64,000 bases of DNA from a virus. Position numbers and translations under genes: made by a program. The first letter of the stretch is position 1, and every line of letters starts with the position of its first letter. The notes beneath the pieces were generated by a model, which did not search any database, was not told the DNA's origin, and worked only from the letters and a program-made list of their open reading frames with translations. The stretch spans positions 10,530-74,529 of IMG/VR virus record IMGVR_UViG_3300049435_000061; one strand, written 5' to 3'. This document shows positions 21 through 64,000 of this stretch, one piece after another.

Positions 21-105
21 TTTGAGTCTCCAATCTTGTTTTTGGTGCTGAACACACCAGCAGCACACACAGGCACGGATGTCTGTGTGGCTGAGTCATG
101 TTCAG

Positions 106-438: not shown

Positions 439-554
439 TGTCTCCAATCTTGGTTGGGCTGAGATACCCAGTGGCGCAGTCAGACGCAACTGTAAGCGTC
501 GCCAGGGGCGGCGAGATGCGCTGTTGGCGTCTGACTGGCCAAGTGTTTCTCAGA

Positions 555-928: not shown

Positions 929-1003
929 TGCGATTCTCCAATCTTGTTGCTAGTGAAAAGCGCACTAGCACGCGGTCGAGGACATCTATAAATCCCCGTG
1001 AAA

Positions 1004-1030
1004 CCCAACCAGTCGGTGAGACTGGTTGGG
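1004..1030 (-). terminator. 11-bp perfect hairpin (terminator/attenuator candidate)
   Basis: CCCAACCAGTC-ggtga-GACTGGTTGGG, followed by only TTT on the minus strand. Confidence 0.5.
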
Positions 1031-1430
1031 AATCATGGAAATTCAAGATTAGAGGAGACTATTCTCAACTATTACAGCTCACTACAATTTCACGGTGCGG
1101 GTCGCGGGACACAAGTCTCAGATAAATGTTCTCGCAGAAGCTTCATCAGCATGACACGCACTTAAGTCGGATACTCTCGTGGGCTGCATTCGTCTCTATA
1201 GGGCATATGTTCATTGCGCGTAGACGGTTTCGGTCACTCTTGAGTGGTCGCTGGTCGTCTCGGTCGTTGGGCGCGGCTTCGGGCTTTGCACTGATCAACG
1301 GTGGTCGTAGCGCGTCTCATATGTCTGTGTCTCTCGGGCTGGTTCACGGAGTGGGTTCAGGCGCGGAAGCGGCTGCTGGTCAAACGGTGTCCCTGGGACT
1401 TGTTTTGATCGGTATGTACTTGTACATCCG

Positions 1431-1460
1431 ATCATAGTAAGACGGGTGTACGGAAGTCAA
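1431..1460 (-). promoter_or_regulatory. SigA-like promoter
   Basis: TTGACT-18 bp-TATGAT in an intergenic region. Confidence 0.7.
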
Positions 1461-10841: not shown

Positions 10842-10878
10842 AAAAAGCCCGACCCCTCTTTGTGTGAAGGCCGGGCTT
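10842..10878 (-). terminator. intrinsic terminator after lysin genes
   Basis: AAGCCCG/CGGGCTT stem followed by T-run on minus strand. Confidence 0.6.
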
Positions 10879-40199: not shown

Positions 40200-40387
40200 T
40201 GGAACTCCTATCTTGTTGGTAGGCAAAGGGTTTGGCGGGCTTGCTAGCCACCAAAGCTGTTGTGCCACTCAATATTTCGACAATTCTGAGACGGCATATG
40301 CCGGGACGCGGTGCGTTGACCGCCGGACGGCGGTTTCGCGCCTGCACCCCTCCCCCCATACTCGTTGCGGCGCAACAGGTTTGGCGG

Positions 40388-59650: not shown

Positions 59651-60076
59651 TCACCGCCTGCATTCGGTGCCGTCCGTAACAGTGCCGTCCGGGTAGCAGA
59701 CTTCCACCGGTCTGTGGCCGTCCAGGGCGTAGCCCACGGTGTACCAGGTGCCACTGCGAGGCCGGGGAGCCGTGTTGGGTGTTGCCGCAAGCAGATCGGT
59801 TCGTGCCACGATGGCGCGATCCCGCATGTGGTAGGGCTTGTGCACCAACACGGTGACGTTGTCGTGGTTCCAGTCGGGTGCCATCATGTATCGCGAATCG
59901 GTGGGTGGGTGCACCACAACGGTTTTGCCGTGGTCCAATGCGATCCGGTGGGACTCTTCGTCGGCCCCGGTGCACGCGCCGTGGTGCACCTCATCGGCCA
60001 GCCTGATTTTGTTTTCCAGCCAACGATGTTGGGCGGTGGTGATACCCATGCGGCTGCCGGAAACGCCGAGAATCAT
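59651..60076 (-). CDS. SLOG-superfamily (DprA/YspA-like) nucleotide-binding protein
   Basis: SGSR, HHGAC.GAD, RDR.IV, SGTW.T. Confidence 0.75.
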   Translation of the reverse strand: MILGVSGSRMGITTAQHRWLENKIRLADEVHHGACTGADEESHRIALDHGKTVVVHPPTDSRYMMAPDWNHDNVTVLVHKPYHMRDRAIVARTDLLAATPNTAPRPRSGTWYTVGYALDGHRPVEVCYPDGTVTDGTECRR

Positions 60077-60603
60077 TGTTGGTCCTCGTCGAACGGTTTA
60101 CATGCCAAACATGCTTGGAAACCGAAAAACCTGCAGGCGCGCAACACTTGGTCGAGACCCCTGGTTTGTGCCCAACGCCAGTCGGCGGCGTCAGCGGCGA
60201 ACCGGCAGTCCGGTTTGTGAATCGTGTTGCCGCCGCGCGAACGTGTCAGGTTCATTCGACCTTCTCCACCCGCACCGAAACGACCTGTATGCACAGTGTT
60301 TCCAGCTGTTTGCGGATCTCGTTGGCGTCCACGGCCACGGTGGTTCGCACCACCGCTGTCACCTTTTGCCGCAAGCCGTTTTGTTTCGCGTGGGCACACC
60401 AGTAGCAATTGCGGTCATATCCCGGTTCGTGCCCAGGAATGTAAAGACAGTTGGGCGTGGTACCGCGATTCACTATTCGTCCTCGAATTCGATGCGGATG
60501 CCGTCGACCCGGTTGCCGCCGTAGAACAGCATCAGCAGCAGGTCGCGGCCTATCGTCTGCTGTTCCTCGTCGTCCAGGTCTGGGAGATTGGTGGCGATCA
60601 TTT

Positions 60604-60870
60604 TCATTGCGCCGACCGCCAGTCCGGCCCGTAGACGTCGGCAAAAACCTTGTACAACCTGGTGATGGCGGCTTCGTAGTTGAAACGTTCGGAAGGCCGG
60701 TCGCGCCAAGCTATTCCGGCTGCTTGGCGTTCAGCGGTGGCGCGTTCGATTCGTGCGCGTTGCTGTTCAGCGTGACCCGGCTCTAGCGGCCCCAGTGTGC
60801 GACCGGTGAGCAGGTTGTAGGTGCGTCGATGTTGGTGATGTTTGCCGCAGGTGCAGGCGATGGGGCACAT
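60604..60870 (-). CDS. hypothetical protein
   Basis: MCPIACTCGKHH start after hairpin. Confidence 0.55.
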   Translation of the reverse strand: MCPIACTCGKHHQHRRTYNLLTGRTLGPLEPGHAEQQRARIERATAERQAAGIAWRDRPSERFNYEAAITRLYKVFADVYGPDWRSAQ

Positions 60871-61036
60871 GATGATCCAATGGGGAGAGATGTGATGGAG
60901 GAAACCGGGCCGGGGAGCACCGTGGGTTACTGCCGGTATGAAGTTGTTTCCCCGGCACCGGTTTCCGGTCAGCGGACCAGCAGTGCTCGCAGCCACCATC
61001 GCAGCGCGAGCACCACCAGTGCGGTAAGGATCAGCG

Positions 61037-61534
61037 TCATGCGGCGACCTGTCGCCGTTTGCGGTTGTACCGATCCACCGACGCCTTGCGTTTCTCTGGG
61101 TTACGTTCAACCCAACGGCGCTTTGCGTCGCGTTGACACTGTGAACATCTGGTGCCACCCGCATTGGTATGCAGCATCGAGTTTGGGTGACCGTTGATGC
61201 ATTCACCCACCGGCCAGTCGCGGCCACGGGTACGGCGTCCATTCTCAAAGTTACTCAACAGGCGTAGATGTTTCACGTTGACACACCTCCGATCACATGT
61301 GGGCCGATGATCGACCGTCATGCCTGCGGGTATCTGGCCTTTCCGTGCAACCCATGCCGCACGGTGCGCTAGGGTCATACGAACTTTCGAGCCGTCTTGC
61401 CAACCGATCTGCGCATACCCGTGTGAAGCCACAGAGTATGTACTGATGTGACAGCTATTGCGACCCGGTGTCCAGTTGATGAACGCGCGGGCCGCAACTC
61501 GCAGCGGTATCGGAATGCCTTGGGAGAGAGGCAC
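61037..61534 (-). CDS. HNH homing-type endonuclease
   Basis: GY..I, AHR.AW....G.IP.G..VDH, CVN..HL, C.NGH. Confidence 0.88.
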   Translation of the reverse strand: MPLSQGIPIPLRVAARAFINWTPGRNSCHISTYSVASHGYAQIGWQDGSKVRMTLAHRAAWVARKGQIPAGMTVDHRPTCDRRCVNVKHLRLLSNFENGRRTRGRDWPVGECINGHPNSMLHTNAGGTRCSQCQRDAKRRWVERNPEKRKASVDRYNRKRRQVAA

Positions 61535-61539
61535 TTTGG

Positions 61540-62208
61540 CTAAAAGGGAGGCTCATCATCTGGCGGCGGCACACCGGCCCACGGGTCAGCGGCAGCGGCG
61601 ACGTACGGATCTTCCTGCGGCGCACGGTCTTCGGCGGGAACGGCGTCGCGCAGGCTGTAGTACGCCTTTTCGGCTTTCTCCACCCACGCCTGCGATTCGG
61701 CGTTGTCTTTCGGTGCCGTCACCTTCACCGGCCCATAGATGCCGACTGAACGTCCGCGCGGCACAGTGTTGAGCGTCGCCTGGTCGGTGATTTCGTTGCC
61801 GGTCGGGTTGCCTTGGGCGTCGTAAACCTGTGCGCGGTCGGTGATTTGGGTGACGATGTCACCGACGTTGATCGGTCGGCCCAGCTCGGTTTTGCTTTCG
61901 ATCCAGTCGCCGAACGCTTTGCCCCGTAGTATCAGGCGCACCAGTTCCTCGGGTTCGGGCACATGCTCGTCCTCGCCGAGACCGACGTTGGCGGTGGTGC
62001 CGGGCAGCGTCATGGCGGTGATCACCAGTTCTTGGCGTGCCTTGCCATCGGCTTTGCGCACCGCCACCATCTGGCCGGTGGCGTCGTCCTTTTTCTGCCG
62101 GTCGCGCTGGTTGACTTTGACGACGGCACCGTAAAACCGTTCGCCCAACGCCTGACGTTTCACCACCGGCAAACCTGGTGCGCGTTCCTCTTCGAGTGGG
62201 ATTCCCAT
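61540..62208 (-). CDS. putative ssDNA-binding protein
   Basis: beta-rich body, acidic tail ending DDEPPF. Confidence 0.65.
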   Translation of the reverse strand: MGIPLEEERAPGLPVVKRQALGERFYGAVVKVNQRDRQKKDDATGQMVAVRKADGKARQELVITAMTLPGTTANVGLGEDEHVPEPEELVRLILRGKAFGDWIESKTELGRPINVGDIVTQITDRAQVYDAQGNPTGNEITDQATLNTVPRGRSVGIYGPVKVTAPKDNAESQAWVEKAEKAYYSLRDAVPAEDRAPQEDPYVAAAADPWAGVPPPDDEPPF

Positions 62209-62232
62209 TTCTGTTTCCTAACTGTGTTGTGG

Positions 62233-62382
62233 TTATTCGGTTTTGGTGTTGTTGTGTTCGGCGAGTTTGTCCAGCACCGCCTGGTCGAGCTGTTTCATTT
62301 CACGGATTTCGTTGTGAAACACCCGCAATGCGCCCAGGCAAAAAGCGGTGTTGAAGGCGGCGAAAATGATTCGTTCAATCAA
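62233..62382 (-). CDS. 49-aa hypothetical protein
   Basis: TTG start; MIERIIFAAFNTAFCLG... Confidence 0.5.
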   Translation of the reverse strand: MIERIIFAAFNTAFCLGALRVFHNEIREMKQLDQAVLDKLAEHNNTKTE

Positions 62383-62401
62383 CGGGTGAACCCCCGGAAA
62401 C

Positions 62402-62462
62402 AAAAAAGGGCTGCCCCGGCGTGAGACAAGATTGGAGTCTAGAAGCCCAGCGCCGGGACAGC
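62402..62462 (-). terminator. large-loop intrinsic terminator
   Basis: GCTGTCCCGGCG/CGCCGGGGCAGC 12-bp stem, 29-nt loop, CCTTTTTTG tail. Confidence 0.75.
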
Positions 62463-62471
62463 TGGTCTATG

Positions 62472-62929
62472 TTACCACCCTGTGCGGGGTGCAGACGGTG
62501 TCGGTGTCAGGGCGCGCGCCAGCCGGTTGCTTTCTTGAAGCATCATCTCGATGCGCCTCAGCGACGCCACAATCTCACTGGTGTCGCAGTCAACAACCGG
62601 CTGGTCGGTGTCGTGGCCGGGTGCCAGCTCGCCGAACAGCAAGTGTTTGACGGCGTCGTAAGCAACCTGGCCGAGAATAGCGGCGAAGGCGTTCACGTCA
62701 GGATTCCCGCCTGCTCAAGGGCGATCAGGCGCTCAAACGCTATCGCGGTGTACCAGACGGCGAAGTTGGTTGCTTCCGGCGTTTCGGCGAAAGTCAATGC
62801 CAAATCGACAACCCGTTCGGCGGGTGTGTCGCGCACCGAACCTTCCTCGCATTCGCGGCGATATGTGGCTAGTGACTCATCGAAATGGTCGGTGGCGTAT
62901 TTGAATTTGAGTTCGCATTTTTGGCACAT
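62472..62929 (-). CDS. two small hypothetical genes (62472-62696, 62693-62929)
   Basis: GTGA-coupled ORFs. Confidence 0.6.
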
Positions 62930-62932
62930 GGT

Positions 62933-63616
62933 TTACCCCATTAACTCATCCACAACCGACTGCAAATCGGATATCGCGCCGGACAGCCGTTTGCAGAATC
63001 GTTGGGCCAGGCGCTTACGGGCTTTCGGCAGCAACTCTTCGTCGTCGTTGAGAATGTCTTTGAACGCCTGCACATTAATCAGCAGCGTGTCCACTTCGGC
63101 GGCGAAGTCTTCCACCACGTCGGCGGGTGTGCGCTCGACGTCGTCGGGTTCATCGTCAACCACCTCGGCGTCGATGACGTTGTCGTCGCGTTTCTTTCGT
63201 GGCTGCGGCGTGCCGTCCAGGCCTTCCACGGTGTCGGGCTTTTCGGCACCTTCGGTGTCGCGGCGCACCGTGGCCTCTGACACACCCAGCATGGCGGCGA
63301 CGGCGCGGTTGGATACGCCTTTACCGCTCATCAGGGAGGCCAGTGCTTTACGTTCCTCGCGGTCCGACAGCACGATTGACACGGCGTCCTTCAGATACGC
63401 AGGCCACGACGGGTATCCCAGTGCGGTGTGGATTTGACCGGTGGCGGCTTTGTTGAGCAGTTCGATCAACTTGTCCTGTTCGGTGGCAACACGGGCACCG
63501 GCCTGGCGGATCTGCTTGTCCAGAACCCGTGCTTTACCTTCCGACAGCGGCTCTGGTGTGTTCACGACCTCGGGCGCGTTCACGACCTCGGGTTCGATAA
63601 CGGCTAGCTCGGTCAT
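62933..63616 (-). CDS. HTH DNA-binding protein
   Basis: LGYPSW..Y; G.SNRAVA..LGVSEATVRRD HTH. Confidence 0.8.
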   Translation of the reverse strand: MTELAVIEPEVVNAPEVVNTPEPLSEGKARVLDKQIRQAGARVATEQDKLIELLNKAATGQIHTALGYPSWPAYLKDAVSIVLSDREERKALASLMSGKGVSNRAVAAMLGVSEATVRRDTEGAEKPDTVEGLDGTPQPRKKRDDNVIDAEVVDDEPDDVERTPADVVEDFAAEVDTLLINVQAFKDILNDDEELLPKARKRLAQRFCKRLSGAISDLQSVVDELMG

Positions 63617-64000
63617 GATGACTGTGTACTCCAATCTTGTTGCAAACGTTTCAGCAGTGCGGCACGTTGCTGCATTGCCTCCCTCACCGGCTCGGTGAGA
63701 AGTCCCATTTCACCTGTGTTGCGCCACAACACCCGCAGTTCGACCAGCGAACCGGCGCGCGACGCTATGTCGATGGCCTCGGCCTCGGTGGGTGGCGTCG
63801 ACGGTTGCCGTTTAGCAACGGGCCGTTTCTTCGGTTTACGCTTACGCGCCAACGCTTGACGTTTGTCCATCGGTCAACTCGTGACGGCGGGTCAGGATGG
63901 CTTGCTTCAAATCCTCGGTGAGGCAGAACGCGCGGCTGGCGTCCTTCCAGATGGTGCGTAGTTCAGCCTCGGTGGTGGCGTCCAACACCGCCGTGGTGAA
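63613..64000 (-). CDS. 63613-63870 hypothetical plus 3' end of upstream gene (63842->64000) with a similar helical domain
   Basis: both contain A....ELR..W......LTE.. Confidence 0.55.

Follow-up and report, generated by a model that had tools for sequence, protein, structure and literature searches.

Why does the loop of a transcription terminator carry the exact antisense of a motif that stands before translation starts in the same genome? The question is raised by T1, an intrinsic terminator on the minus strand of a 64,000-nucleotide (nt) stretch of viral DNA (the window, which comprises bases 10530-74529 of the 74,529-bp IMG/VR record IMGVR_UViG_3300049435_000061; coordinates are window positions unless marked as genome, and those of the main features are collected in Table 1). 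The motif, CAAGATTGGAG, lies in ribosome-binding sites (RBS) of this phage and has the layout of a start-associated sequence (SAS), a type of element described in cluster K mycobacteriophages. The comparative evidence presented here makes it plausible, with a probability that can be set at roughly 0.55, that RNA hairpins displaying the antisense of the motif (anti-SAS) pair with SAS translation starts and co-regulate the SAS gene set.

T1 is built as a Rho-independent terminator, with a G+C-rich stem of 12-16 bp followed by CCUUUUUU at the end of a predicted transcription unit. On the minus strand the arm at 62462-62451 (GCUGUCCCGGCG) pairs with that at 62421-62410 (CGCCGGGGCAGC), the U-run follows directly after the stem at 62409-62402, and the stem starts 10 nt past the last stop codon of the operon. 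The element folds with -30.3 kcal/mol in RNAfold (z = -5.1, none of 200 shuffles being as good), the plus strand giving a weaker structure (-28.7 kcal/mol, z = -2.2). A preliminary description of this DNA had noted the terminator with its 29-nt loop and had counted the complementarity of 62426-62438 as 13/13 to the RBS of an upstream gene for a helix-turn-helix (HTH) protein and 11/11 to the motif copy at 442, with 12/12 for each of those at 28 and 936. All of these positions and counts were found to be correct; on the plus strand, 62426-62438 reads ACAAGATTGGAGT, identical to the minus-strand RBS region 63640-63628. It had also drawn an AGAC/GUCU mini-hairpin within the loop, and this detail has to be corrected. 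In the minimum free energy (MFE) fold the stem is prolonged by UGGG/UCUCA and the apex is closed by AGA/UCU round a CUCCAA loop, and the AGAC/GUCU pairing is not kept in relatives. The CUCCAA core is predicted to be unpaired with a probability above 0.9, and all four of the homologous hairpins have a predicted 3-bp apical closure (AGA/UCU or GAU/AUC). Two readings of the opposite strand at this locus were discarded: the plus-strand copy of the motif in T1 has no start codon 5-12 nt downstream and so does not qualify as the RBS of a plus-strand gene, and the long plus-strand open reading frame 62421-63437 is antisense to three well-scoring minus-strand genes.

Across the whole record the motif occurs on the minus strand in 11 exact copies and one copy with a single mismatch, all of them before ATG starts; the SAS copies are located in genome 4204-11457 and at the HTH gene. 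The plus-strand gene at genome 3676-3858 is preceded, at a distance of 8 nt, by a thirteenth copy, GAAGATTGGAG, with one mismatch. All 13 starts are ATG, and the GGAG of the motif precedes the ATG by 5-9 nt in 12 copies and by 12 nt at the HTH gene. A control pattern made by reversing the letters of the motif had no occurrence. The genes led by the motif encode an ArdC-like anti-restriction protein, a clamp-like protein, a DUF3846 protein and many proteins of unknown function; no copy precedes a virion gene, the genes being non-structural and the orientation single, and the 13 genes are probably early or host-takeover genes. The SAS sites are predicted to be somewhat more accessible than other RBS regions (0.56 vs 0.45, p = 0.02).

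SAS and the neighbouring extended SAS (ESAS) repeats were described in cluster K mycobacteriophages by Pope et al. in 2011 (PMC3203893), and SAS also in the cluster EF Microbacterium phages (PMC7302621). The motif of this phage resembles them in being asymmetric, about 13 bp long and centred on a Shine-Dalgarno (SD) core, in having more than 10 copies in one orientation, mostly at ATG-initiated non-structural genes, and in being accompanied by small inverted repeats just upstream. It differs in sequence, the consensus here being CAAGATTGGAGAC, also written (A)ACAAGATTGGAGAC, and that of cluster K GGGATAGGAGCCC, with only the core GAT[T/A]GGAG in common. Judged by sequence and placement, the motif is an SAS system of the same kind as that of cluster K, belonging to a different sequence family and forming a new sequence variant of SAS. 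The inverted repeats, for example GGTCTnnnnAGACC or GGTGTnnnnnACACC, precede most SAS copies by 8-12 nt (genome 4563-11475); changes in their arms compensate each other (GGTCT/AGACC vs GGTGT/ACACC), and the same repeats are found in a relative of this phage, L145. They are an analogue of ESAS, unlike the cluster K ESAS in sequence, and could act either as RNA hairpins or as operators for a dimeric protein.

The reverse copy in T1 is not what chance would be expected to produce. Allowing at most one mismatch, the window contains the 10-mer of the motif 8 times, where 2.0 would be expected, a count reached by none of 100 shuffles, and the 11-mer has 11 exact minus-strand copies in the 74,529 bp and one exact plus-strand copy, which is that of T1. 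The apical loops of hairpins of -30 kcal/mol or better cover 3.1% of minus-strand positions, and CUCCAAUC, as it appears on the minus-strand transcript, falls in such loops in two of its three occurrences, the third being the antisense of the motif-type RBS that belongs to a plus-strand gene. Scanning IMG/VR for the exact 14-mer gave single matches of chance type only.

Conservation of the loop was followed in three informative relatives, obtained by searches with the terminase and the HTH protein: a 44-kb IMG/VR contig (G001) with a terminase 77% identical, and two others of 10 kb (L145) and 2.9 kb (L146). In the IMG/VR protein searches the HTH protein had contig G001 as its sole match and the ArdC-like protein had none. 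The motif precedes the HTH homologue in the three relatives, in L146 as the one-mismatch variant GAATGGAG, and G001 and L145 carry many further copies. On the same strand and 3' of the HTH gene, each of them has a reverse-motif hairpin, at a distance of about 350 nt (L145), 0.9 kb (L146) and 1.3 kb (G001). When the four T1-type hairpins are aligned, CTCCAATCTT is invariant in the apex, the stems and the loop lengths differ, and changes in the stems compensate each other (UGGG/UCUCA in T1 vs CUUGG/CCAAG in L146); the G001 loop matches 19 nt of the longer motif version of G001, CCACAACAAGATTGGAGAT. Because the HTH proteins of the relatives are only 42-54% identical to that of this phage, these ten invariant non-coding bases indicate, at the level of sequence, that the loop is under selection. 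Prophages with HTH relatives in Mycobacterium sp. E2479, Mycolicibacterium xanthum and an Actinomycetota metagenome-assembled genome have no SAS system and are uninformative on the loop. The antisense copy is real, non-random and conserved.

These data bear directly on the view that the reverse copies have no function and are scars of recombination or inversion at SAS gene junctions, persisting by common descent. Phage genomes are mosaic, short sequences shared at junctions favour illegitimate exchange, and several SAS-bearing phages manage without the loop. Scars, however, would hardly keep ten bases invariant within a hairpin whose stems have diverged, beside HTH proteins so far apart, nor would they be expected in apical loops, a placement improbable by chance; this view seems very improbable.

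T1 is not alone in the genome. The terminator T2, which lies outside the window in the segment genome 1-12600 (L121), has a 10-nt loop, UACUCCAAUC, displaying ACUCCAAUC, and folds with -42 kcal/mol (z = -6.8). Two further clean minus-strand intrinsic terminators occur in the window at 10846 and 43257 (AGCCCGGCC...GGGTCGGGCT then T5, and ACCCGCCC...GGGCGGGT then T6, as listed); their loops lack the anti-motif, and the feature is therefore specific to T1 and T2. A scan of the sequence for T-runs combined with folding was too noisy for counting terminators. The third element is found in the putative leader of the long SAS-gene block, where the minus-strand sequence CUCUAAUCUUG is predicted to pair with the first SAS (946-936) as a helix of 11 bp, closing a domain of three hairpins; the domain (930-1075, minus strand) has -60.3 kcal/mol and z = -7.36, with none of 200 shuffles as good. 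Relative to the SAS, this leader anti-SAS has a 3-nt insertion, which is tolerated as a bulge in an RNA duplex of -16.7 kcal/mol. The occurrence of three such elements in one genome is a further argument against scars.

Two observations were made round these elements. T2 is a bidirectional terminator and faces a convergent plus-strand gene of 60 amino acids with a motif-type RBS, GAAGATTGGAGT (L121 3654-3858). Close to it lies a plus-strand gene for an HTH_3 repressor-like protein of 154 amino acids (L121 2161-2625), and because of this gene the region may be an immunity region. In the window, 930-1888 is a gap of about 960 bp without a credible gene, between the first SAS gene and a plus-strand gene at 1888-2160; the promoter-like sequence listed in Table 1 falls within it and, as a match to the consensus, is a candidate for the start of a leader of about 480 nt of the SAS block.

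A parallel case of the same design was found in cluster K. The K1 phages have a single reverse copy of the SAS, which was remarked on and left unexplained by the authors who described it (PMC3203893). In Anaya this copy (L133:39871-39883) is predicted to form an apical loop of 10 nt, CCUCCUAUCC, at the tip of a two-tier hairpin, in a region conserved in 135 cluster K phage records. Among eight diverse members 95.7% of the positions of the structure are paired and six pairs are doubly changed; on four of five measures the observed values are attained in only 0-2 of 500 shuffles, and on the fifth, which counts further pair types, in 73 of 500. Many one-sided changes in this hairpin are to G-U pairs, which fit a sense-strand RNA structure. 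The K1 hairpin is not a terminator. In Adephagia it occupies the intergenic region of genes 92 and 93, downstream of an invariant TAGACT, and RNA sequencing (RNA-seq) has shown that late transcription starts in that intergenic region (PMC11373665). Side by side with these hairpins, tandem CGCCGACGCCCGC-like units lie in Adephagia between the gp92 terminator and the TAGACT/anti-SAS region (L160:1500-1545) and are absent there in Anaya, and in the cluster K Mycobacterium phage Nanz197 (L135, record about 59999-61336) an annotated reverse transcriptase gene is directly upstream of the anti-SAS hairpin region.

Covariation of loop and motif, which the preliminary description had proposed as a check, is seen between this clade and the cluster K phages. 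The loop tracks the SAS core, GATAGGAG going with CUCCUAUC in cluster K and GATTGGAG with CUCCAAUC in this clade, and the flanks track it too, GGG with CCC and CAA with UUG. Predicted duplex energies follow the same division: the SAS of this phage with the T1 loop gives -18.8 kcal/mol (consensus) or -20.5 kcal/mol (HTH copy), and the cluster K SAS with the K1 loop -22.0 kcal/mol, whereas either SAS with the loop of the other system gives -6 to -11 kcal/mol. With the 3' tail of 16S rRNA, either SAS reaches about -9 kcal/mol (tail sequence taken from general knowledge). When all 140 translation starts were ranked by duplex energy the SAS genes came near the top, a ranking confounded by the stem bases that were included. 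That cluster K has the same design with a matching loop sequence also speaks against scars.

The reversed copies at T1, at T2 and in the late leader of K1 could instead be sites on DNA, recognised as double-stranded motif by a protein of the phage or its host in the manner of the stoperators of phage L5, and acting as orientation-specific roadblocks or operators, with the loop position being secondary. The layout of the motif, asymmetric, in many copies between genes and almost always in one orientation to transcription, is that of stoperators; the gene of an HTH protein lies just upstream of T1; the K1 reverse copy, just downstream of the inferred late promoter, is well placed for an operator; and DNA-binding proteins were favoured by Pope et al. 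for the neighbouring ESAS repeats (PMC3203893). Several properties are nevertheless at odds with a DNA site. The fixed distance of 5-12 nt between GGAG and ATG points to a role in mRNA, and the motif is not palindromic, which would be unusual for dimeric HTH proteins. Three separate reverse copies are all in apical loops, which take up about 3% of positions. The stems contain G-U pairs, covary as RNA and fold better as the sense-strand RNA, and the insertion in the leader copy keeps RNA pairing intact and would disrupt a contiguous protein-binding site on DNA. Hence RNA is favoured over a DNA site by the fixed spacing to the start codon, the apical placement in three contexts, the strand-specific G-U stems and the bulged leader copy, and a DNA site is considered unlikely.

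A different alternative stays with RNA and confines its action to termination in cis. The nascent loop would pair with the upstream SAS when this is free of ribosomes and alter the folding of the terminator and read-through, a translation-coupled attenuation with no RNA acting in trans. The best complementarity in this genome, 13/13, is with the SAS of the same operon, a short one ending at T1 and having the HTH gene as its first SAS-led gene; the anti-SAS is enclosed by the arms of the stem, so that early pairing could compete with closure of the hairpin; and a SAS/anti-SAS helix in cis is strongly predicted in the leader. On the other side, the partner is 1.2 kb away, the 12-bp G+C stem is not disturbed by pairing of the loop, the K1 hairpin is no terminator, and the loops of the relatives match the consensus or the SAS of another gene better than the HTH copy. 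An action on termination alone is accordingly judged improbable, a little more so than a DNA site. The last of these points also weakens the long-range pairing with the HTH gene that had been suggested for T1: the full 13/13 match stands in this phage, and in the relatives it is the consensus, rather than the HTH copy, that the loops fit.

For pairing of anti-SAS hairpins with SAS translation starts, the reading preferred here, the occurrence of pairing in vivo, the direction of its effect, its route in trans or in cis and its timing are what we infer from the observed complementarity, predicted structures, conservation and covariation between lineages. T1 would be a Rho-independent terminator doubling as a regulatory element, its apex exposing the anti-SAS on the transcript, and the exposed CUCCAAUCUU would pair with AAGAUUGGAG in the translation-initiation regions of SAS mRNAs. 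Since the predicted duplex, at -19 to -20 kcal/mol, is much stronger than the value of about -9 kcal/mol for the 16S tail, the pairing would compete with binding of the 30S subunit, and the whole SAS set would be co-regulated, most likely downward. No part of a transcript resists nucleases better than a terminator hairpin, and for this reason a 3'-end fragment carrying T1 or T2 could act in trans; it would accumulate as the operon is expressed and decays, producing a delayed negative feedback. By a cis route, the T1 element would act on its own mRNA and the leader element would sequester the first SAS. In the K1 phages the reverse-SAS hairpin, lying in the leader of the late transcript, would couple the shut-off of SAS genes with the switch from early to late expression. 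Those positions of the motif that are conserved in addition to GGAG would then constitute a private address that is not shared by host mRNAs. Extended to actinobacteriophages in general, the proposal becomes tentative and rather doubtful: a private translational code in which 16S-tail-like loops, matching the SAS perfectly, out-compete ribosomes and switch the SAS set off at a set time.

A number of observations weigh against this reading. Within the clade the core of the motif is identical in all four phages, so that loop-motif covariation is absent there and rests on one comparison, that of this clade with cluster K. The two SAS cores share 7/8 bases (GAT[T/A]GGAG), and by their sequences the two systems may therefore be related by descent and not convergent. 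The T2 equivalent of L145 lacks the anti-motif. Among other SAS phages, ZoeJ (K2) and AnnaSerena (cluster EF) were checked and had no anti-SAS loop, a near-match in AnnaSerena being part of a terminator stem and at chance level; the loop has been lost in SirPhilip; and K6 phages with the consensus SAS have a 1-nt deletion in the loop, which brings the duplex from -22.0 to -15.1 kcal/mol, with no SAS change matching the altered loop found in the K6 phage DarthP. Because of these cases the loop is a losable accessory and cannot be the sole reason for SAS conservation. The preliminary description had proposed the loop as the RNA antisense partner that explains why the motif is conserved; the partner part is strengthened by the invariance of the loop in three relatives, by the two additional anti-motif elements and by the covariation with cluster K, and the explanatory part has to be restricted. 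Stoichiometry would be unfavourable unless the RNA accumulates, with one anti-SAS per operon facing up to 12 SAS sites. Finally, to judge from the modelled structures, a loop of 6-10 nt would nucleate pairing, and the full 11-13 bp would require the weak apical pairs to open.

Antisense loops directed at RBS regions have known counterparts, from which the present elements differ in several respects. In the window no Rfam 15 family reached its gathering score, and E-value scans of 61800-64000, L121 and the cluster K loci gave sub-threshold matches of chance level only, none of them to RF01695 or RF01066. The c4 antisense RNA of phages P1 and P7 (RF01695) and the sar RNA of P22 are phage RNAs from the same strand as their targets. 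The hairpin loops of c4 pair with RBS regions of mRNAs of the same phage, and loop and target change together between related phages. There is no homology of sequence or structure between c4 and T1; c4 is processed from the 5' portion of its operon and has a single antirepressor operon under its control, whereas here a terminator would face 13 putative targets. Small RNAs (sRNAs) derived from 3' untranslated regions (3'UTRs) and terminators, such as s-SodF of Streptomyces and CpxQ of enterobacteria, have a stable 3'-end hairpin that could persist as a regulator, as proposed for T1. The 6C sRNA of Actinobacteria, whose C-rich loops base-pair independently of Hfq with the G-rich RBS regions of several mRNAs, is also similar to the T1 proposal, although T1 is not a 6C member, having no Rfam match. 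In both of these groups the targets are met through partial seed matches, whereas those of T1 would be set by one motif shared within the phage. The stoperators of L5 (cluster A; cited in PMC3203893) resemble SAS in consisting of many asymmetric 13-bp intergenic copies oriented with transcription; they are DNA sites of the repressor and, unlike SAS here, are not tied to an RBS or to start-codon spacing. Compared with cluster K, the reverse copies of this phage are distinctive in lying in terminator loops and a leader, and published SAS work gives no RNA partner; in the literature no paper was found in which a hairpin or antisense pairing is connected with the reverse SAS.

Papers of 2024 and 2025 continued to describe the role of SAS as unknown. 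These sequences are present in over 180 mycobacteriophages of cluster K, some members of which have been engineered for therapy. With a cognate antisense loop on the same strand in the window, in its relatives and in K1 phages, the question of what SAS do becomes directly testable, and Adephagia or Anaya in M. smegmatis, with RNA-seq already published, offers a tractable system. If the pairing is true, one short phage RNA loop would control a dozen genes through an identical site, adding a regulon-wide antisense switch to the mechanisms that time phage gene expression. It would explain the conservation of the motif beyond the SD core, together with the function of SAS, unknown since 2011, and would give mycobacterial genetics an RBS and a repressor RNA that form an orthogonal pair.

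Table 1. Positions of the SAS and anti-SAS elements and of associated features (window coordinates, except for T2).
Feature	Position	Strand	Details
T1 intrinsic terminator	62402..62462	minus	12-bp G+C stem (~16 bp in MFE fold), 29-nt enclosed region, U-run
Anti-SAS of T1	62426..62438	minus	reads ACUCCAAUCUUGU on transcript, in T1 apex
Two small genes, 78 and 74 amino acids	62472..62929	minus	between HTH gene and T1; no family match
HTH-domain protein gene, 227 amino acids	62933..63616	minus	PF13384 HTH_23, E = 1.5e-5; 21 homologues
SAS copy of HTH gene	63628..63640	minus	ACAAGATTGGAGT; 13/13 complementary to T1 apex
SAS copy	28..38	minus	before ArdC-like gene running off left window edge
SAS copy	442..452	minus	before gene 106-438 (phrog_18180)
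First SAS copy of long SAS-gene block	936..946	minus	gene 701-928
Leader anti-SAS	1044..1059	minus	GUCUCCUCUAAUCUUG; minus-strand 1054-1044 = CUCUAAUCUUG
Promoter-like TTGACT-18-TATGAT	1431..1460	minus	10/12 consensus positions; consensus match only
Variant SAS CAAGATAGGAG	40205..40215	minus	before 66-amino-acid gene, far from main block; core = cluster K GATAGGAG
T2 terminator	genome 3921-3983 (L121), outside window		after last gene of long SAS block; stem of at least 17 bp with G-U pairs, then UUUUUU

The phage itself has nearly all genes of the record on the minus strand. A megablast search of the region against isolated phages gave no match. Of the sequencing runs listed as containing the sequence, one is of DNA and none of RNA. 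Its terminase shares 61-68% identity with the terminases of Mycobacterium abscessus prophages and Gordonia phages, and distant relatives of the HTH gene are held by Mycobacterium and Mycolicibacterium genomes; because of these similarities the source is, on sequence grounds, an actinobacteriophage without a close cultured relative. The relative L145 (L145:1-10032) has the SAS gene block, a convergent terminator, some genes on the reverse strand and the HTH operon in one uninterrupted stretch. The two ends of the record (genome 1 and 74529) are therefore probably joined in the real genome, by circular permutation or through an arbitrary linearisation of the sequence.

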